6,341 nt of DNA from positions 1-6,341 of the IMG/VR virus record IMGVR_UViG_2529292719_000021. One strand, written 5' to 3'. Source of the DNA: a virus. Taxonomy: Duplodnaviria > Heunggongvirae > Uroviricota > Caudoviricetes. Position 1 is the first letter of the stretch. The number at the start of each line of letters is the position of its first letter. The notes beneath the pieces were generated by a model. The model did not search any database. It saw only the letters and a list, made by a program, of their open reading frames with translations, and was not told the origin of the DNA. Both the position numbers and the translations under genes were made by a program. Shown here one piece after another: positions 1 to 6,341 of this stretch.

Positions 1-56
1 GGTATCCGTTCTGCTGAAGTGTCATGGCGTTGATTTTACGGTGACTCTTCGACAGT

Positions 57-83
57 GAAAAGAAAAAAGGCCGCAGAGCGGCC
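57..83 (-). terminator. Rho-independent terminator closing the minus-strand repressor-int-cargo transcription unit
   Basis: Perfect 6-bp GC stem GGCCGC/GCGGCC with 3-nt loop at 69..83; on the minus strand it is followed by a U-run (plus-strand A-run 57..68). Lies about 110 bp downstream of the stop of the 193..759 gene. Confidence 0.6.
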
Positions 84-192
84 ATAATCACATTCAAAAA
101 TCAACAAGTTAAATAATTATCAATAACTTACAGACACACAAAAACACAGTCAACCACAACAAGTAACAGTGATGTGGTCACTTTGTGGATCA

Positions 193-759
193 TCAGCCAA
201 CAAATTTTGCAATGAAATACGTAGCCGCCGCTGTAAAAAGCGAAGTAAAGATGGCTATACACACAGGTATAATGATGCCACTCAACCGCCACTTCGTATT
301 ATCATCAACTTTGTCAAACCGCCGATTCATCTCATCCATAATCTTGTCAAAGCGTTTATCCATCGCTTCGGCAATCTCCCCCTTCAGGCTGTTAATGTCT
401 GATTTGAGCTGCTCTTTCAGGTTAGCTGTATCAGATTTAAGCTCACCTTTCAGATTCGCAATATCGCATTTAAGCTCACCTTTCAGATGTGCTATGTCTG
501 CTTTGAGTTCACCTTTCACCTCACCAACATCGGCTTTAGTTGAGAGGTTTGTAGTGCGTTCAGCAAGCGTCGCAAGGTCGTTTCTTGTTAGCGATAAATC
601 ACCTTCGAGCCGCTCAATTCGCCTTTCAAGTTTATCTGACATTCCGCCTCCACTACTGCCGCCATCGCCACCATGATAAAGCACATCACGCTCAGAATGC
701 GACACACTACCTGCTGAATTACCGAAAAGATTTCTTGCTACATTACCCATTATCACCAT
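193..759 (-). CDS. Tail-anchored membrane protein with 11-residue (hendecad) tandem repeats and a single C-terminal transmembrane helix; function unknown
   Basis: ORF of 188 aa. Contains repeats VGEVKGELKAD / IAHLKGELKCD / IANLKGELKSD / TANLKEQLKSD, then RFDKIMDEMNRRFDKVDDNTKW, then a hydrophobic stretch GIIIPVCIAIFTSLFTAAATYFIA at the C-terminus. Start is ambiguous: the ATG at 759 overlaps the upstream gene by 17 nt, while an internal ATG at 642 (MSDKLERR...) is preceded by GGAGG. The antisense plus-strand translation is Ser-rich low complexity, so minus is taken as the coding strand. Confidence 0.6.
   Translation of the reverse strand: MVIMGNVARNLFGNSAGSVSHSERDVLYHGGDGGSSGGGMSDKLERRIERLEGDLSLTRNDLATLAERTTNLSTKADVGEVKGELKADIAHLKGELKCDIANLKGELKSDTANLKEQLKSDINSLKGEIAEAMDKRFDKIMDEMNRRFDKVDDNTKWRLSGIIIPVCIAIFTSLFTAAATYFIAKFVG
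403..534 (-). repeat. Four contiguous 33-bp tandem repeats, in frame, inside the 193..759 CDS
   Basis: Plus-strand units at 403..435, 436..468, 469..501 and 502..534 (TTTGAGCTGCTCTTTCAGGTTAGCTGTATCAGA / TTTAAGCTCACCTTTCAGATTCGCAATATCGCA / TTTAAGCTCACCTTTCAGATGTGCTATGTCTGC / TTTGAGTTCACCTTTCACCTCACCAACATCGGC), with degenerate copies on both sides. Each unit encodes one 11-aa repeat. Confidence 0.85.
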
Positions 760-1243
760 CCTGCGCTTTGTCTTTCTCCAACCACTTCAGCACCGCAGAC
801 GTACGATAAAGGCTCAGGTAACCACAATTCAGGCAATGCAGCGTGTAATAAGTTTTGCGCATATCAGGTATGCTCTTAACATCACCCAAAAAAGTATAAG
901 ATACATAATGCTTTATGTTCTCTTTAATTAACTCACTCTGCTCCTCCAGGGGTAGATTGTTAAAATTTTCTGGTTTCTTATTTTTATCCCAGCAAAGATC
1001 CATACTTTCAGGAACAGATAATCGCGACGATCCACATGAAGGGCAGACACTGGAGACCCCCTTCTCAGACAAGAAACGGAAGAAGATTTCTGGCGTAATC
1101 TCCATCAGCCGCTCTTTATGTTTTTTGACACGACTCATCGACTTCTTATTGATTTCATCAGCTTCTTCTTTGCATTTATCTTCTATATATTTCGATAGTA
1201 AATAGTCATATAACTCTTTTTTTGTAGGTTTTTTTATTTCCAT
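743..1243 (-). CDS. Lys/Glu-rich protein with two distant CxxC pairs (possible split zinc ribbon); function unknown
   Basis: ORF of 166 aa. CPSC at residues 67-70 and CLNC at 146-149, preceded by His. ATG at 1243..1241 sits 2 nt after the integrase stop (TAA at 1248..1246), with GGAGG 9 nt upstream inside the int 3' end, indicating co-transcription with int. Low GC, roughly 33-43% by hand count on sampled 120-nt stretches. Confidence 0.6.
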   Translation of the reverse strand: MEIKKPTKKELYDYLLSKYIEDKCKEEADEINKKSMSRVKKHKERLMEITPEIFFRFLSEKGVSSVCPSCGSSRLSVPESMDLCWDKNKKPENFNNLPLEEQSELIKENIKHYVSYTFLGDVKSIPDMRKTYYTLHCLNCGYLSLYRTSAVLKWLEKDKAQDGDNG

Positions 1244-1245
1244 AG

Positions 1246-2223
1246 TTACATTCCTCCCAAGGGATTAAACCTCACCGCATCCTGCAAGTAATCCGGCGCA
1301 AGATGGGCATAAATCATCGTTGTCTGAATCTTTGCGTGCCCCAGAATTTTCTGGAGCGTCAGAATATTGCCGCCGTTCATCATGAAATGACTGGCGAAGG
1401 TGTGGCGCAGCGCATGAACAGCCTGGCCGTCAGGAACATCAGGTGCGACCGTTTTGATGACATCGCGAACCAATGAATAATCCAGCGTCGGAAACACCAG
1501 TTTCCCGCCCCGTTTTTTGATCTTTTCAAACAGGCTTTCAGAAATAGGAACGGTACGGTTTTTGCTGTTCTTCGTTTTTGAAAAAGTGATTCGACAATGA
1601 AGAACACGGCGCTGCTCCAGTGCCGCTACCTCGCCCCATCGCGCCCCGGTCGACAGAAGGATTTCGACGGCCAGCCGTTCATCGGGATTTTCAGCCAGTG
1701 CATCCAGCAACTGAACACATTCAGACTTACTCAGATATCCCATTTCACGCTCGTTAACCTTCATTCCTTTAAGGCCTTGAACGGGGTTATCGTTAAGAAA
1801 ATGGCCGGATGAGATGAGTGCGGTAAACATCGCGCTTAACGCCCCAATCTCTCGATTTATGGTGCTGGGCTGTATCCCCTGCTCTATCCTGGACACACGT
1901 AGCTCGGTGAGCATCGTTGTATTAAGTTTATGCACGCACGGGTCATCCATTGCCTCACTCAAGCGCAGCAATTTAAGGCGCGTGTTATGCCCTGACTTCA
2001 TTAGCTGGCCGTGGTATTTCCACCACAAGTCAATAAGCACTGACAGCGGACGGCGATCAATGGAGTTTCCTTTCCACTCATTGTTATGCTGTTGCGCCAG
2101 CACCCACCGCTCATATAAAACTGCATCCGATTTCGTTTTAAATTTTTTGCGAATGCGTTTGCCTTTACGCCCCTCAGGACGCATGTCAAGAAGATACCCT
2201 CCCGGAATTGATTTTATGCTCAT
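1246..2223 (-). CDS. int: Tyrosine site-specific integrase, P2-Int-like family
   Basis: Translation from the internal ATG at 2223: MSIKSIPGGYLLDMRPEGRKGKRIRKKFKTKSDA... Carries the recombinase boxes STGARWGE, HALRHTFASHFMMNGG and LGHAKIQTTMIYAHLAP (catalytic Tyr). The N-terminal pattern matches what I recall of P2 Int. The ORF-track start at 2373 would overlap the upstream repressor, so 2223 is preferred. Confidence 0.9.
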   Translation of the reverse strand: MSIKSIPGGYLLDMRPEGRKGKRIRKKFKTKSDAVLYERWVLAQQHNNEWKGNSIDRRPLSVLIDLWWKYHGQLMKSGHNTRLKLLRLSEAMDDPCVHKLNTTMLTELRVSRIEQGIQPSTINREIGALSAMFTALISSGHFLNDNPVQGLKGMKVNEREMGYLSKSECVQLLDALAENPDERLAVEILLSTGARWGEVAALEQRRVLHCRITFSKTKNSKNRTVPISESLFEKIKKRGGKLVFPTLDYSLVRDVIKTVAPDVPDGQAVHALRHTFASHFMMNGGNILTLQKILGHAKIQTTMIYAHLAPDYLQDAVRFNPLGGM

Positions 2224-2272
2224 TCGTGAAGCCCCAGCGTTACAAGACCACCATGCCCCCAGCGTTCCATGA

Positions 2273-2584
2273 TTAGCCGGGCTGTGTGCCAGTCTTGCGG
2301 GATTTTTGAGAAGACGATGTGTTTTCTGGCCCATCAGGGGAGAGAGAAGGACTGATCTGCCCAGCAGCCTCATTTGTTTCGTTACTCATCAACCACGTAG
2401 TGTATTTTTTAAATTCCGGGTGCATTGTGATTTTCAGTAAAACCTCCGTTCCCACACCTCGAATACCAGTCTCGTATTGCTTAACCGTACCAACCGCAAT
2501 ACCTATTGAATCCGCGAACTTTGCCTGACTAAGCCCCTCAGATTCTCGAATTGCTTTTAGCTTCTTTGATATCTCTATTGACAT
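2273..2584 (-). CDS. HTH immunity repressor (P2 C-like / XRE-type), upstream of and co-oriented with int
   Basis: Translation from the ATG at 2584..2582: MSIEISKKLKAIRESEGLSQAKFADSIGIAVGTVKQYETG..., a helix-turn-helix followed by FKKYTTWLMSNETNEAAGQISP, resembling the recalled C-terminal motif of P2 C. AGGTG lies 7 nt upstream. The repressor-then-int order on one strand with a divergent early operon matches P2/186 organisation. Confidence 0.7.
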   Translation of the reverse strand: MSIEISKKLKAIRESEGLSQAKFADSIGIAVGTVKQYETGIRGVGTEVLLKITMHPEFKKYTTWLMSNETNEAAGQISPSLSPDGPENTSSSQKSRKTGTQPG

Positions 2585-2679
2585 GGTGTGCACCTGAATA
2601 CTATATTGGTTATCAGTTGAGTACCACTTGACGCTACAAAGAGCCACAAATAGCACCAGATTGAATAGGTTATCACACC
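2585..2679. promoter_or_regulatory. Divergent promoter/operator region between the repressor and the early operon (Pc/Pe-like switch)
   Basis: 95-bp intergenic region between divergent genes. Direct repeats ATTGGTTATCAG (2605..2616) and ATAGGTTATCAC (2665..2676) share the core GGTTATCA. Plus-strand TTGACG at 2628..2633 is a possible -35; minus-strand TATAGT (complement of 2600..2605) is a possible -10 for the repressor transcript. Confidence 0.5.
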
Positions 2680-2958
2680 ATGGCAAAAGTCCTTAACACA
2701 TACGAACAAGCGGATTTTGAGCGTTTGGCGGCGTTCTACCCATACCGTAATGAACATGGGCTACCGGTACTTGAAGAAAGCCTAGAGGATTATGCGAAAC
2801 GCACAAATCAAAGCATTCTCGCTGTAAGAAGGCAGGCTGATAGATCGGTAATTCCCGTTACTCAAGAAGGAAGAAACACAAAACGCAAAGTAAATCTCTT
2901 CGCAATTTTCCTGAAAACCATCAGAAACGCAGAGAAATACGTGCAGATGACAAAATAA
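2680..2958 (+). CDS. Cox/Apl-like small early protein (putative excisionase and switch regulator)
   Basis: 92-aa basic ORF, first gene of the operon divergent from the repressor; position and size match P2 Cox / 186 Apl. The role is inferred from position, not from sequence similarity. Confidence 0.45.
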   Translation: MAKVLNTYEQADFERLAAFYPYRNEHGLPVLEESLEDYAKRTNQSILAVRRQADRSVIPVTQEGRNTKRKVNLFAIFLKTIRNAEKYVQMTK

Positions 2959-2972
2959 CGAGGTGTCATTTT

Positions 2973-3311
2973 ATGCTGAAGCAACGCCGTAATTTTTGTA
3001 CCGGAACAGAACGCCACGCTAACCGTTTCACTACCAGTGCATCACGCAGCAACATCCGCTACAGCCTGAGTGATACACACGCAACGCCGGATGGCTACCC
3101 AGTAAAACAAATCGGCGAGCACGCCTGGCTGATTGAGAAAGCTGGAATCGTGATCCACAAATGCCCACGCAATCCGTTTACCGGAAACCGCATTTTTGCT
3201 CTAAGCAGTGGCGACAATCAGTTCGGGCAGGATTTCACATTATACGAAGCACTTCGCACGGTTGATCGTCTGCTTCGCGGGCAAAGTTTTATTAAACAGG
3301 CTGATTTATAA
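2973..3311 (+). CDS. Hypothetical early protein
   Basis: 112-aa ORF; GAGGTG sits 7 nt upstream of the ATG; starts 14 nt after the previous stop. Confidence 0.5.
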   Translation: MLKQRRNFCTGTERHANRFTTSASRSNIRYSLSDTHATPDGYPVKQIGEHAWLIEKAGIVIHKCPRNPFTGNRIFALSSGDNQFGQDFTLYEALRTVDRLLRGQSFIKQADL

Positions 3312-3321
3312 CAGGTGCTTT

Positions 3322-3609
3322 ATGACCAAAGACCATGCACAAGGTGTATTTATCCGTTTTATTGATTTTCGCGGTGAACTGTTATTACGTGCATCCGCTA
3401 TTGACGGAGTGACTCCGGCGGGTAAAAACGGAGCCGACGAAGCCACTTACGTTTATCTGAACGGCACGCGACTGCTTGTGGAACTTCCGTACCAGACCGT
3501 ACGAGAAATCATTAGCGAAGCTGAAAAGGCACGCCAGGTTAATGGCGATGAACCCTATATCGAAATTATTTGTATGGATTCAGAAGCTGAAATACAGAAA
3601 GCAGATTAA
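3322..3609 (+). CDS. Hypothetical early protein
   Basis: Track ORF 3208..3609 trimmed to the internal ATG at 3322 (MTKDHAQGVF...), which follows the previous stop at 3311 and has AGGTG upstream. The longer form would overlap the upstream gene by about 100 nt. Confidence 0.5.
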   Translation: MTKDHAQGVFIRFIDFRGELLLRASAIDGVTPAGKNGADEATYVYLNGTRLLVELPYQTVREIISEAEKARQVNGDEPYIEIICMDSEAEIQKAD

Positions 3610-3617
3610 AGGGCGTT

Positions 3618-3863
3618 GTGATGGGCAAAGAATATAAAACTCTCATTAACAAAGCACTTGAGCGTTTTTATTTTCGCTTAAGTGCATCAGGCGCTCATGC
3701 TGAACGTGCGGCCCGTGACTCATTGACCAGAGCAATCCGAAGTCTGTATGACGTGGCTTTTTACGCTGATGATCTGGATGCACTTAACGAACTTTCCGAG
3801 CTAATCTGTGCCGCAGAATGCGGGGAACATATTGAACCGTATAAGCTGGGGAATATCGCATGA
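3618..3863 (+). CDS. Hypothetical early protein
   Basis: 81-aa ORF. The track starts at GTG 3618; the adjacent ATG at 3621 is the more likely start. Its stop overlaps the next start (ATGA). Confidence 0.5.
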   Translation: MMGKEYKTLINKALERFYFRLSASGAHAERAARDSLTRAIRSLYDVAFYADDLDALNELSELICAAECGEHIEPYKLGNIA

Positions 3864-3973
3864 GTATATTTATCTCATGGCTTGTTCTGATTATTTCTGT
3901 GGCCTGCGCCATTGGGATTATGCGAATTATTCATTCAGTAAAAAAGATTGAACGCTTTTTCACTGGCGAATAA
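3860..3973 (+). CDS. Small hydrophobic peptide (37 aa), putative single-pass membrane protein
   Basis: ATG at 3860 overlaps the upstream stop (ATGA). Translation MSIFISWLVLIISVACAIGIMRIIHSVKKIERFFTGE has a hydrophobic core followed by a basic tail. Absent from the ORF track, presumably because of size. Confidence 0.35.
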   Translation: MSIFISWLVLIISVACAIGIMRIIHSVKKIERFFTGE

Positions 3974-4059
3974 CAGAGCAAATAAAACCACAGGTTAAAT
4001 AAGAAAATGTAAAAACAATCCGCATTCGCGGAGGTATTCGCATACGCCAAGGAGGCGTA

Positions 4060-4263
4060 ATGGCAATTAAGCATTTTCCTGTCGTTCGTTTTACCTCCAG
4101 AGGACGTGAATACGAAGTCGACGAACGCCTGATTACCACAATCGACAAACACCGTTCAGAAAAGGATGCACATCACATCTATCTCACTGACGGCACTTAC
4201 TTCTGCGCCACGAATGTGGTGCAGGTGAACCTTATCCGACAGGTACAGGAGTCACGCAGATGA
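4060..4263 (+). CDS. Hypothetical early protein
   Basis: 67-aa ORF with a strong Shine-Dalgarno AAGGAGG at 4049..4055. Confidence 0.55.
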   Translation: MAIKHFPVVRFTSRGREYEVDERLITTIDKHRSEKDAHHIYLTDGTYFCATNVVQVNLIRQVQESRR

Positions 4264-4505
4264 CCATTCTGGATTATATCGCTGCCAATCCGGGGTGTAG
4301 CGGTGGAGAAATCGCCGCAGCACTGAATACCCCAACCACAGCCATTAATGCGGAGTTACGCCGACTCTGGCGCAGCGGTTCAGTCATAAGAAAAGAGCGC
4401 AAAACAGGCGGTCGCTTTTCTTACCAGATAAACCCGATGCCGTTCGGGTGCGGCAATCCACTTACCAACATGTTTAACCAGCTACTGAAGGAAGCCAGAG
4501 CATGA
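4260..4505 (+). CDS. Small putative winged-helix DNA-binding protein
   Basis: 81-aa ORF; ATGA overlap with the upstream stop. The N-terminus MTILDYIAANPGCSGGEIAAALN... has the look of a wHTH regulator; this is weak pattern recognition only. Confidence 0.5.
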   Translation: MTILDYIAANPGCSGGEIAAALNTPTTAINAELRRLWRSGSVIRKERKTGGRFSYQINPMPFGCGNPLTNMFNQLLKEARA

Positions 4506-4801
4506 GCGCCATCAACCACCAGGAATTACGCGAACTGGCAACTGACCTTCAACGAATGGCAACGCATCAAAAATTACTGGCGTTTCGCGCAATGCTCTCG
4601 CCGTCTGCTGTGCTGGCACTGCTGGATGAGCTGGAGCACGCCAAAACCACGGCTCCTGCCATTCGCCTGACGCTCCATCATGAAATCGCTGATTTCTGCG
4701 CAACGCTGGGGGCACCTGGCGAACCGGAAACGCCGGAAGCAATGCAGCAAGAGCTGCTGCAACGCATTGACAAGGTTTTTGATTTTTTTCTGAACCAGTA
4801 A
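4502..4801 (+). CDS. Hypothetical acidic early protein
   Basis: 99-aa ORF; ATGA overlap with the upstream stop; last gene before the 322-bp non-coding region. Confidence 0.55.
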   Translation: MSAINHQELRELATDLQRMATHQKLLAFRAMLSPSAVLALLDELEHAKTTAPAIRLTLHHEIADFCATLGAPGEPETPEAMQQELLQRIDKVFDFFLNQ

Positions 4802-4923
4802 GAAACCAGAACATGCACACACAAAAAAACCGCTTGCCATGCCGCAATCGGTCAGGTTACATTTCCGCTGCACCTCATAAAACGGGTGCCGGGATTCTCA
4901 ACCCGATACAGAGCAAAGCGCAT

Positions 4924-4945
4924 AACCGCGCCAGCGGTTTTTTTG
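4924..4945 (+). terminator. Candidate intrinsic terminator
   Basis: AACCGC-GCCA-GCGGTT hairpin (6-bp stem) followed by TTTTTTT at 4939..4945, about 120 nt after the stop at 4801. Confidence 0.4.
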
Positions 4946-4956
4946 TGCGTACTGTA

Positions 4957-4985
4957 TTGCCACGTCTTTTTCGCGTCAGAATTAT
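4957..4985 (+). promoter_or_regulatory. Candidate sigma70 promoter for the downstream genes
   Basis: TTGCCA (4957..4962), 17-nt spacer, AATTAT (4980..4985). A transcript from here would carry a leader of about 130 nt containing a UUCG-loop hairpin (about 5000..5018). Confidence 0.3.
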
Positions 4986-5123
4986 GGCGGGGCGTACGGG
5001 GCCGACTTCGGTCGGGCCGGATTCTTTGCTCTCCGGTGTTGAGAACCCTGTACGTCTCGCCACCCCGAGATTCTCAACTCTGGATGGTGAGCTATTTCTA
5101 TCACCGAGCAAAGAGGCCACACC

Positions 5124-5354
5124 ATGGCAAACCGCAAACAACAGCGCGCATACGCTGCGCGTCGTCACATCCAGACTGAAATCAACCGCAGACTTTCCCG
5201 CGCATCACGCGTCGCGCAAATCATGCACATCAATATGCTGCATGAGCGCAGCCACGCACTATCAAACATTTATTCCGCCTCTGTTTTCAGCTATCTGGCG
5301 GATGATCTGCACGAGCTTCAACAGCTCATCCAGCAGCAAAACAAACTCCATTAA
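5124..5354 (+). CDS. Small basic hypothetical protein
   Basis: 76-aa ORF; AAGAGG sits 7 nt upstream. Arg-rich N-terminus MANRKQQRAYAARRHIQTEINRR. Confidence 0.45.
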   Translation: MANRKQQRAYAARRHIQTEINRRLSRASRVAQIMHINMLHERSHALSNIYSASVFSYLADDLHELQQLIQQQNKLH

Positions 5355-5426
5355 TTCCTGTTCCGGGCCTTTCCTGCACCTTGCGGCGGGAGGCCTTCGC
5401 ACATCTGTAACAAGAGGATTGCCGCA

Positions 5427-5792
5427 ATGATTCTCGCCAACGACTTTCTTGAATACCTGCTCAACACAGAGCGTGATCTTGCCGCTCGCGTGCGTGATCG
5501 TTATGACATGTACCTGAAATCCCTGCCTGTACCGCAGCTCGCTGACGGAAAGATTGTTATTGATGGTCGCTACATGATTGACAGCCACGAGGGAAATTAC
5601 AGGCTTTACCGCATTGAAGGTGGCACCCCGTCCGTTATTGGCATTTACCAGCGCCCATCCTCTGCAATCGTCGATGTGATTGCCGACAGCATCCGCATCA
5701 CACATCGCCATGCCGACACAGAAGACACCGTGCTGGAAATTCAGCGGCTGGCTACAGTCTGCCGCGACACCCTGAATGGCATGACGAAGTAA
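5427..5792 (+). CDS. Hypothetical protein
   Basis: 121-aa ORF; AAGAGG sits 9 nt upstream; only 6 nt before the next start. Confidence 0.5.
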   Translation: MILANDFLEYLLNTERDLAARVRDRYDMYLKSLPVPQLADGKIVIDGRYMIDSHEGNYRLYRIEGGTPSVIGIYQRPSSAIVDVIADSIRITHRHADTEDTVLEIQRLATVCRDTLNGMTK

Positions 5793-5798
5793 ATCACT

Positions 5799-6341
5799 AT
5801 GACGGCAGAGTACATCAGGGACTGGCAACAACCGCGCCACGCAGTGGGGCGTGAAGGAACGGGGATCCCCGCTCCTGAATCCGCGCTTTCCTCCTGGCTG
5901 GATGCCTACCGGGCAGAGAACGAGCGCCGCCAGGAAATGGCTGATGCGGCGTTCTCCGCCACGCCGCTGGGCAACCTGATTAATAAAAGCCTGGACGCAC
6001 AGGAAAAACAGGACAAAACCATCACACTGGCAGGAGACGCCAGAAAGCAGGCACGCGGCGCGGTGGATGAAGCCATGGCCTCGCTGCGCCTGCTGCCGTC
6101 CTATCTGCGCGATCCGCTTATTCGCCACCTCTCCTTCCTGCGCAAAAAACAGGAATCTGACCGCCAGAAAGGTAAAAAGAACCAGCAGGCTGAACGCTAC
6201 GCGCGCGGGACCCTGCGCAAAATATTCGAACGTCTGGACCGCACCGACCACCGCTGGCTGACACCGGGTTATCGCGCCCTTGCCGGACGCGAACGCCTGG
6301 ATGATTTGCTTTACCTCCCGCAGCTCAACAAGCACCAGATA
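5799..6341 (+). CDS. 5' part of a larger ORF running off the window; possibly a P2 gpA-like replication initiation protein
   Basis: Open frame with no stop from the ATG at 5799 to the window end (181 codons, checked by hand). Not in the ORF track because it is unterminated. The motifs RHAVGREG and LPSYLRDPLIRHLSFLRKK resemble what I recall of the P2 A N-terminus, and the position after the small early genes fits. The family call is tentative. Confidence 0.45.
   Translation, partial: MTAEYIRDWQQPRHAVGREGTGIPAPESALSSWLDAYRAENERRQEMADAAFSATPLGNLINKSLDAQEKQDKTITLAGDARKQARGAVDEAMASLRLLPSYLRDPLIRHLSFLRKKQESDRQKGKKNQQAERYARGTLRKIFERLDRTDHRWLTPGYRALAGRERLDDLLYLPQLNKHQI

Follow-up and report, generated by a model that had tools for sequence, protein, structure and literature searches.

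The window analysed here, a stretch of 6,341 nucleotides (nt) of Caudoviricetes DNA (IMG/VR record IMGVR_UViG_2529292719_000021, positions 1 to 6,341), represents the left end of a P2-like Escherichia coli prophage that has inserted in the terminator of ihfA. Two short open reading frames (ORFs) lie there on the minus strand, between the integrase gene int and the left attachment (att) site. ORF1 encodes a protein with four conserved cysteines and ORF2 a coiled-coil protein with a predicted C-terminal membrane helix, and this pair is the subject of our analysis. An earlier reading based on the letters of the window alone (the sequence-only reading) had taken the two genes for cargo and for a candidate defence module. 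The coordinates are collected in Table 1, and other loci are denoted by L numbers.

Table 1. Features of the window in and around the ORF1/ORF2 pair.
Feature	Position	Strand	Description	Basis
Intrinsic terminator and att core, AAGAAAAAAGGCCGCAGAGCGGCC on the plus strand	59..83	-	hairpin 83..69, T-run 68..59	terminator scan
Phage-side spacer, att core to ORF2 stop	84..192	.	~110 nt	probable attP arm
ORF2	193..750	-	185 aa; frame open from ATG 759	ORF list
C-terminal transmembrane anchor of ORF2	208..279	-	12-nt insertion in the window	hydropathy maximum
33-nt tandem array in ORF2	414..518	-	11-residue units LKGELKxDIAN	Tandem Repeats Finder: period 33, 3.2 copies
Beta-layer-type motif of ORF2	529..546	-	L-S-T-K-A-D, start of stalk	invariant alignment columns
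Conserved internal ATG of ORF2	640..642	-	residue 37 of 185-aa form	preceded by GGAGG
ORF1	743..1243	-	166 aa	ORF list
Tyrosine integrase, int	1246..2223	-	325 aa	Pfam Int_N + Phage_integrase; PGAP annotation of sibling prophage
C-type helix-turn-helix repressor	2273..2584	-	103 aa; first gene of leftward lysogenic unit	Pfam HTH_3; PGAP annotation

Organization of the locus

The pair is packed closely against int. On the minus strand the int stop codon TAA (1248..1246) and the ORF1 ATG (1243..1241) are separated by 2 nt, and the ORF1 stop codon (745..743) falls within ORF2, giving an overlap of 8 nt when ORF2 is read from the ATG at 750. An identical 8-nt overlap is found in L005, L006, L010, L021 and L046. 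Our scan detected no minus-strand promoter-like site between int and the pair, and the single terminator-like hit inside int is weak and no more than would be expected by chance. The module is compact (1.05 kb) and self-contained. We can soundly infer that it is expressed in the lysogen, because in related phages the pair sits between repressor and int or directly behind a CI-like repressor.

Beyond ORF2 the window passes into the host chromosome. Positions 1..83 are bacterial DNA, matched in 5426 of 5426 complete E. coli genomes, and correspond to the short interval between btuC and ihfA. At the unoccupied site the sequence GGCCGCAGAGCGGCC leads into the ihfA stop codon, whereas the same point in the window leads into phage DNA. 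A core of ~24 bp, AAGAAAAAAGGCCGCAGAGCGGCC, is present at both prophage junctions and in attB (read in strain BW25113), with copies at 59-83 of the window, at L023 35427-35450 (attR of a sibling prophage) and at L003 1559-1583. This core includes an intrinsic terminator, GGCCGC-TCT-GCGGCC followed by a T-run, that begins 110 nt past the ORF2 stop codon. The hairpin is the host ihfA terminator, doubling as the att core of this P2-like family. It follows that ORF1 and ORF2 are inside the phage, that the phage-borne copy of the core rebuilds the ihfA terminator upon integration, and that the other copy ends up behind the leftward phage operon, just upstream of btuC. Between the core and ORF2, the spacer is kept in almost all prophages of this int family, whatever their cargo. 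In ~270 genomes with the same int, positions 100..193 are the sole matching part of the cargo region (~92% identity). The spacer is probably the attP arm.

The arrangement proposed in the sequence-only reading is therefore largely confirmed by the coordinates. It had placed the first ATG of the pair 2 nt past the int stop, had the second gene overlapping or closely following the first, and had put both genes between int and the presumed prophage end, now located as attL by the core at 59..83. The terminator it described behind the pair is likewise present at 83..59, but it is host ihfA and att-core sequence and not a feature of the cargo.

ORF1 is probably a zinc-binding protein

ORF1 contains exactly two CxxC motifs, arranged as CxxCG ... 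CxxCG. In an alignment of 54 members that reaches down to 20% identity, C67, C70, C137, C140, G141 and W154 are invariant, and every one of the 54 has two CxxC motifs, lying 52-77 residues apart. Most members are acidic, the median isoelectric point being 5.35. We modelled ORF1 with AlphaFold2 (AF2; predicted local distance difference test score 82, predicted template modelling score 0.64). The model, a confident one, begins with a long helix spanning residues 8-46, which is missing from short members of the family. A shorter helix comes next, then a small alpha/beta domain, and a helix again at the C-terminus. Both cysteine knuckles are borne by the alpha/beta domain, the second lying between strands 131-137 and 143-147. 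ORF1 is a small soluble protein whose four-cysteine site probably binds zinc.

Known families offer little with which to compare it. No fold match to ORF1 was found in the PDB or BFVD, nor any match in Pfam, NCBIfam or PADLOC, the zinc-ribbon hits in Pfam being sub-threshold. A sequence search of the PDB returned nothing, and tblastn against deposited phages and plasmids gave no match to ORF1; divergent ORF1 alleles matched a few Klebsiella phage records only. The sole family label is phrog_4293 of PHROGs, function unknown. By word-indexed search we identified 18 relatives, distributed over E. coli, Shigella, Salmonella and Providencia. A profile search of 1.84 billion representatives gave 90 clusters at E <= 0.001, 37 of them at E <= 1e-10, with members of ~100-180 aa, and the relatives that bear a name are all called 'hypothetical'. 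By these comparisons ORF1 founds an unannotated orphan family. We consider zinc-ribbon-like, the earlier term for the protein, a fair description of a predicted fold without a known relative.

ORF2 is a predicted tail-anchored coiled-coil protein

ORF2 begins with a disordered N-terminal tail (aa 1-36), which is followed by a poly-Gly/Asp run, a long helix and a C-terminal membrane helix. AF2 modelling of the ORF read from ATG 759 (188 aa) leaves residues 1-37 disordered and places helices at 41-155 and 163-187. Relatives of the pair could be inspected at the DNA level in 15 lineages, and comparisons of reading frame, Shine-Dalgarno (SD) sequence and hydropathy were made on 14. In 14 of 14 ORF2-like partners the hydropathy maximum is the C-terminal segment, with only a few residues beyond it, and on this basis ORF2 is tail-anchored and most of the protein is predicted to lie in the cytoplasm.

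The tandem array within ORF2 translates to about five 11-residue units, such as LKGELKCDIAN, in which hydrophobic residues follow a 4-3-4 spacing. Both the hendecad repeats and the tail anchor of the sequence-only reading are thus found, the former as the 33-nt array and the latter as the C-terminal hydropathy maximum. The lengths of homologues change in 11-aa steps, being 112/123/134/145/156 for short-form and 148/159/170/181/192 for long-form calls, and ORF2 cores of 145 aa and of 156 aa occur among modules with near-identical ORF1. At the start of the stalk, T74, K75 and D77 of the beta-layer-type motif are invariant in alignments A2 and A4 (numbering of the 188-aa ORF), and partners from other lineages have NYASKGD, FATKSD or FVTKEN in this position.

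The start of the protein requires some discussion, since the Prokaryotic Genome Annotation Pipeline (PGAP) begins ORF2 at the internal ATG (642) in some genomes. In 14 of 14 divergent lineages no stop interrupts the frame over the 24-40 codons that separate the internal Met from the ORF1 stop, whereas the other two frames of the same stretches contain 38 and 68 stops. In shuffled sequences the chance of such an open stretch is 0.04-0.2 per lineage. With the exception of L018, the extension ends in a Gly/Asp-rich run, for example GGDGGSSGGG, GNDGGDG or GGGGGGD. Because the frame is open in all 14 and the Gly/Asp run is kept, we conclude from sequence comparison that the long form is real and hence translated. 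One might still suppose that one or both ORFs are not genes, and in particular that the extension is a non-coding leader; the short PGAP form and a fast-evolving N-tail predicted to be disordered would fit such a view. Yet both proteins have many divergent homologues with conserved motifs, the poly-Gly run is kept as protein and the 8-nt overlap geometry recurs, so that together with the stop counts above the idea becomes barely credible.

Translation may also start within ORF2. The internal Met is nearly invariant, and most of the 14 lineages have an SD-like GGAGG or GGAG no more than ~8 nt ahead of it. This SD-like sequence (640-665 on the minus strand of the window, and at 13 other loci) is made of the poly-Gly codons. 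A second, shorter isoform produced from the internal start is plausible.

ORF2 has discernible relatives. It scores 25.6 bits (E 1.3e-5) on the CCDC90-like Pfam model PF07798, formerly DUF1640, below the gathering cut-off of 33.5. Some close homologues carry precomputed PF07798 hits, and PGAP labels close homologues as DUF1640 or CCDC90 family. The best sequence hits in the PDB are weak and are engineered beta-layer coiled coils. Using tblastn against plasmids, ORF2 matches the Bdr proteins of Borrelia with E down to 4e-7. Alignment of its profile with Bdr of Borrelia turcica cp33 by hhalign gave a probability of 97%, over coil and anchor only and possibly inflated by coiled-coil composition. 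The same Bdr protein scores 39.3 bits on the CCDC90-like model, which is above its cut-off, while the NCBIfam Bdr model gave no hit to ORF2 at E <= 0.1. ORF2 is probably a distant relative of DUF1640/CCDC90 and Bdr. We have not filed it as a member of any of them, because it falls below the Pfam cut-off and is probably without their N-terminal domains. The earlier reading had stated that neither protein resembles a canonical P2 backbone function; we add that ORF2, unlike ORF1, is no orphan, being recognisably DUF1640/CCDC90- and Bdr-like.

The pair forms a mobile module of temperate phages

Each of the 15 lineages has an ORF1 relative with a tail-anchored coiled-coil partner directly behind it, so that the pair is conserved as a unit in other genomes. 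The partners share a layout in which a variable N-tail and a Gly/Asp run precede the conserved Met, a helix of the LERRxxxLE type and the terminal membrane helix. Most have a beta-layer-like (S/A)(S/T)KxD motif in the stalk, the number of repeats ranges from none to several, and partner start and ORF1 stop usually overlap.

The surroundings of the pair are varied. It is found behind int in P2-like prophages, among others those of E. coli, Salmonella and Klebsiella; in the repressor-int interval in L018 and L049; and adjoining ogr, at the other prophage end, in L005 from Providencia and in L021/L022. In the lambdoid locus L048 it is directly behind a CI-like repressor, with stop and start overlapping, and opposite a P22-Cro gene; in lambda this slot is taken by rexAB. 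It lies in a tail cluster in L044, between the tape-measure gene and a DNA-circulation gene, and it precedes tail genes in Klebsiella phage ST101-KPC2phi6.1. Salmonella, Klebsiella, Providencia and Morganella are among the genera with relatives. Scanning genome, viral and metagenome contigs for patterns recovered mostly near-identical copies; the wide alignment A5 is too diverse for pattern scanning. By its distribution the pair is a mobile two-gene accessory module of temperate phages.

A unit of this kind might be a toxin-antitoxin (TA)-like maintenance module, in which ORF2 would be a membrane-damaging toxin, the coupled upstream ORF1 its antidote, and any exclusion of phages a side effect. 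The gene order and the 8-nt overlap suit an antitoxin-then-toxin layout, the two genes are inherited together in all 15 lineages, and ORF2 is small, membrane-anchored and at a sub-threshold level similar to XhlA, a membrane-active prophage protein; moreover, a Hok/Gef gene in the sibling prophage indicates that such modules are tolerated in this type of phage. There is, however, no similarity of the pair to any TA family, and ORF1 has no DNA-binding domain for autoregulation. The DUF1640 and Bdr relatives of ORF2 occur alone elsewhere, with no ORF1-like partner, and strong allelic diversification of the putative antitoxin in identical backbones is atypical of addiction modules. We consider a TA-like function rather unlikely.

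Variation in the interval between int and att

The int gene of the window is present in 293 of 5426 complete E. coli genomes at >=95% nt identity, and 299 match at all. The prophage family that it defines is thus present in ~5.5% of these genomes, including O157:H7, O26, O145 and O104:H4 strains. The int-att slot behind this gene has more than one kind of content. Window-type DNA of the pair is found in only 23 of the int-bearing genomes, most of the others sharing just the spacer (100..193). A very divergent homologous pair, comprising a 120-aa CxxCG...CxxCG protein and a 145-aa partner, occupies the slot in 86 genomes, so that a version of the pair is present in at least 109 of ~300. Some prophages with the same int, including that of O104:H4 2011C-3493, have instead one unrelated 131-aa orphan. 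The orphan lies at L017 2591-2986 and L053 1344-1739, on the minus strand in both, and has no match in Pfam, NCBIfam or PADLOC. Because sibling prophages with the same int hold other content at this place, the pair is accessory cargo, as the sequence-only reading had it. We had also considered the pair as a fixed, 'semi-core' feature of the phage lineage, and dropped this when int-only and cargo-only searches revealed the alternative contents.

These data bear upon the possibility that the pair serves the phage's own cycle, as an accessory of integration or excision, by tethering phage DNA to the membrane, or in the decision between lysis and lysogeny. Widespread siblings that have the same int (>=95% nt) and no pair, such as that in O104:H4 2011C-3493, indicate that it is dispensable for integration. 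The pair is also found beside ogr and inside tail gene clusters, and canonical P2 does without it. For such a role one can cite the tight linkage to int or repressor in most contexts, the location of bdr genes, which lie close to replication loci and, in the case of B. turcica cp33, come shortly after a tyrosine recombinase, and a Liberibacter phage homologue that lies behind a primase gene. On balance a function in the phage cycle seems improbable.

Within the family the pair has diverged in blocks. Comparison with L010, which carries a third type of pair, gives identities of 99.7% for int, 95% for the repressor, 98% for a cox-like gene and 88% for ORF2, and of only 55.6% for ORF1. The DNA identity drops from ~100% to 50-60% at ~1290 and recovers partially over the C-terminal knuckle. 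The ORF2 N-tail is 74% identical, the identity returns to 100% exactly from the internal Met (~650), and the membrane helix is at 66-74%. Relative to the O26 sibling L001, nearly all differences are in the membrane helix, with a concentration at 208..286 that includes a 12-nt indel. Thus ORF1 with the ORF2 N-tail, the repeat number and the membrane helix vary as separate blocks in an otherwise uniform prophage.

In the relatives L019, L020 and L018 there is more unannotated cargo before the prophage end, behind the pair or int (L019 5056-6840, L020 4886-6075, L018 5687-6766), and the int-att region can therefore hold more than one module. The extra cargo includes a 594-aa orphan, a membrane protein with a 210-aa protein that has a weak PDC-S64 hit, and a PIN_12 protein. 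The idea that alternative cargo and neighbouring genes might be known defence genes was rejected, the single weak PDC-S64 hit being the only one. The sequence-only reading had called the int-att position typical of lysogenic-conversion, superinfection-exclusion or abortive-infection modules. In a 2026 survey of P2-like phages the int-att interval is reported, independently, as a minor defence hotspot with 3% of the systems in P2 (PMC13586616). We did not find the ORF1/ORF2 pair described in that survey, as far as it is searchable.

A possible role in exclusion or abortive infection

The reading that we favour, tentatively, is that the pair is a module expressed in the lysogen that acts against other phages by exclusion or abortive infection. 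It is suggested by the position and the evolutionary pattern of the pair; such a pattern has led to new defence systems before. In the mechanism we propose, the pair would be transcribed with the repressor-int message in the lysogen, ending at the att-core terminator. ORF2 would form a trimeric stalk at the cytoplasmic face of the inner membrane, like its DUF1640/CCDC90 relatives. ORF1 would be a fast-evolving specificity subunit docking on the variable N-tail of ORF2, a contact suggested because both parts change together. The pair might then block the entry of DNA or other early steps of an incoming phage at the membrane, or alternatively the membrane might be permeabilised once ORF1 senses infection, and the short ORF2 isoform could modulate or brake the long one. 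The sub-threshold similarity of short partners to XhlA would fit an action at the membrane.

We also entertain a more specific form, which is correspondingly more doubtful. It is possible that this is an undescribed immunity or exclusion system in which a hypervariable Cys4 sensor controls a tail-anchored beta-layer coiled-coil effector made as two dual-start isoforms. If so, it would provide the first bacterial function for the DUF1640/CCDC90/Bdr superfamily.

A number of considerations weigh against a defence function. PADLOC shows no similarity to known or candidate defence proteins beyond coiled-coil noise. All the contexts found are phage or prophage, never a non-phage defence island. Co-transcription with int is presumed from gene order, and for L005, L021 and L044 a separate promoter of the pair has to be assumed. 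ORF2 is predicted to lie almost entirely in the cytoplasm, which is ill suited to a classical block of DNA injection in the periplasm. The acidic character usual for ORF1 makes the sensing of nucleic acid unlikely, and the putative contact between ORF1 and ORF2 is deduced only from shared recombination boundaries. Lastly, we give no weight to the earlier argument that defence systems commonly combine a soluble metal-binding protein with a membrane effector, which is too general a pattern.

A further explanation is that the pair has no role against phages and is a lysogenic-conversion module acting on host physiology, in which ORF2 would be a membrane scaffold, in the manner of MCUR1/CCDC90B or Bdr, that alters the membrane or the stress response. 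The absence of a homology link to defence and probable expression in the lysogen are both in keeping with this, as is the likeness of ORF2 to DUF1640/CCDC90 and Bdr, which are scaffold-like inner-membrane proteins (PMC10016077). The sharp allelic replacement of ORF1, the ORF2 N-tail and the membrane helix suggests, on the contrary, selection of a conflict type, and the pair is restricted to several phage types and was not found on chromosomes. We regard a purely physiological role as unlikely.

Whatever its function, the pair is a good candidate for a simple experiment, being a conserved unit in a rex-like position at a variable locus, with block-wise diversification and a possible dual start. 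Should exclusion or abortive infection not be its function, the pair would still show what else temperate phages keep on the repressor transcript.

Other features of the prophage

E. coli O26 RM8426 harbours a sibling prophage of ~35 kb that ends at ihfA and shares 98.3% identity with the window over positions 1..2700. Its gene set is that of a full P2 phage, with replication endonuclease, portal, terminase, capsid, lysis, tail, gpD and ogr genes. In the sibling prophage a PIN-domain gene lies between gpD and ogr (L023 32822-34324, plus strand) and a Hok/Gef toxin gene between ogr and attR (L023 35019-35159, plus strand). Cargo is thus carried at the other prophage end as well.

In the early region of the window, Rfam identifies the Hfq-binding small RNA IsrK at 4870-4944 (62.8 bits) and, adjoining it, a C4 antisense RNA at 4980-5067 (78.5 bits), both on the plus strand. 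Together these look like an antirepressor control element of the c4/isrK type. The sibling L001 is ~780 nt shorter in this region and appears to be without the element. The plus-strand gene of the replication endonuclease (gpA) runs past the end of the window. An ORF of 357 aa on the minus strand inside it (5262-6335) is most likely spurious, antisense to gpA.

Comparison with known families and systems

The DUF1640/CCDC90 family, to which MCUR1 and CCDC90B belong, has no established bacterial function. ORF2 is like these proteins in having a single C-terminal membrane helix and a long coiled-coil stalk. The beta-layer motif at the start of a DUF1640 stalk has the form [aliphatic]-A-T-K-[polar]-[D/E] (PMC4786415), and LSTKAD of ORF2 fits this consensus with Ser replacing Ala. 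It differs in that no folded head is predicted in the monomer AF2 model, the disordered N-tail and poly-Gly run being there instead, and in being encoded by a phage, next to a Cys4 protein with which it is paired.

Bdr proteins reside in the inner membrane, are encoded by cp32 prophages and are still of unknown function (PMC10016077). They share with ORF2 the inner-membrane location with a C-terminal hydrophobic tail, central 11-residue repeats of the ELKxDI type in a copy number that varies between alleles, and carriage by prophages, in the Borrelia case prophage plasmids of the cp32 type. Unlike Bdr, ORF2 has no match to the Bdr N-terminal domain, and we found no ORF1-like Cys4 partner beside bdr. 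In B. turcica cp33 (L051 18-1959) a 60-aa ORF free of Cys separates a tyrosine recombinase gene from the bdr gene just past it, and a portal gene comes next, an order that loosely mirrors that of int, small gene and tail-anchored repeat protein in the window. Other DUF1640 proteins with 11-residue repeats occur in Liberibacter phages, behind the primase gene, and on an Aliivibrio conjugative plasmid, with no ORF1-like neighbour. ORF2 thereby ties coliphages to the Borrelia Bdr and mitochondrial MCUR1/CCDC90B proteins, whose functions have been open for decades, and a phenotype in E. coli would give a tractable model for the DUF1640/CCDC90/Bdr superfamily.

XhlA (PF10779), from the lysis cassettes of Bacillus prophages, combines a short coiled coil with a C-terminal membrane helix, as does ORF2. 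The scores are weak: against a cut-off of 34.7 bits, ORF2 reaches only 13.9 bits and the 99-aa partner in L048 only 24.3. The pair differs from XhlA in its lysogenic, accessory position, and the prophage has a separate lysis cassette.

In PADLOC-DB 2.0 the only hits to ORF2 are of the coiled-coil type (LmuB and ZorA, E 1e-3 to 3e-5), and there is nothing for ORF1 or the L016 alleles. The two proteins fall in two PHROGs, both of unknown function, and the literature, searched by DUF name, protein accession and key words, contained no description of the pair. The earlier reading of the pair as undescribed thus holds across PADLOC, Pfam, NCBIfam, the PHROGs function labels, the PDB and the literature.

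As a system the pair is undescribed, and its nearest analogues would be rexAB and sieB, by position and logic only. The rexAB genes of lambda and sieB of lambda and P22 are accessory genes on the repressor transcript that are expressed in the lysogen. PADLOC, Pfam and fold searches revealed no similarity of the pair to rexAB or sieB in sequence or fold. The likeness to lambda rexA-rexB is one of position, with a slot behind a CI-like repressor (as in L048) and a soluble partner alongside a membrane partner; RexB is polytopic, whereas ORF2 has one terminal helix. Long and short ORF2 isoforms arising from a dual start would recall holin/antiholin pairs or sieB/esc. An internal in-frame start is used by sieB, and this may hold for ORF2 too.

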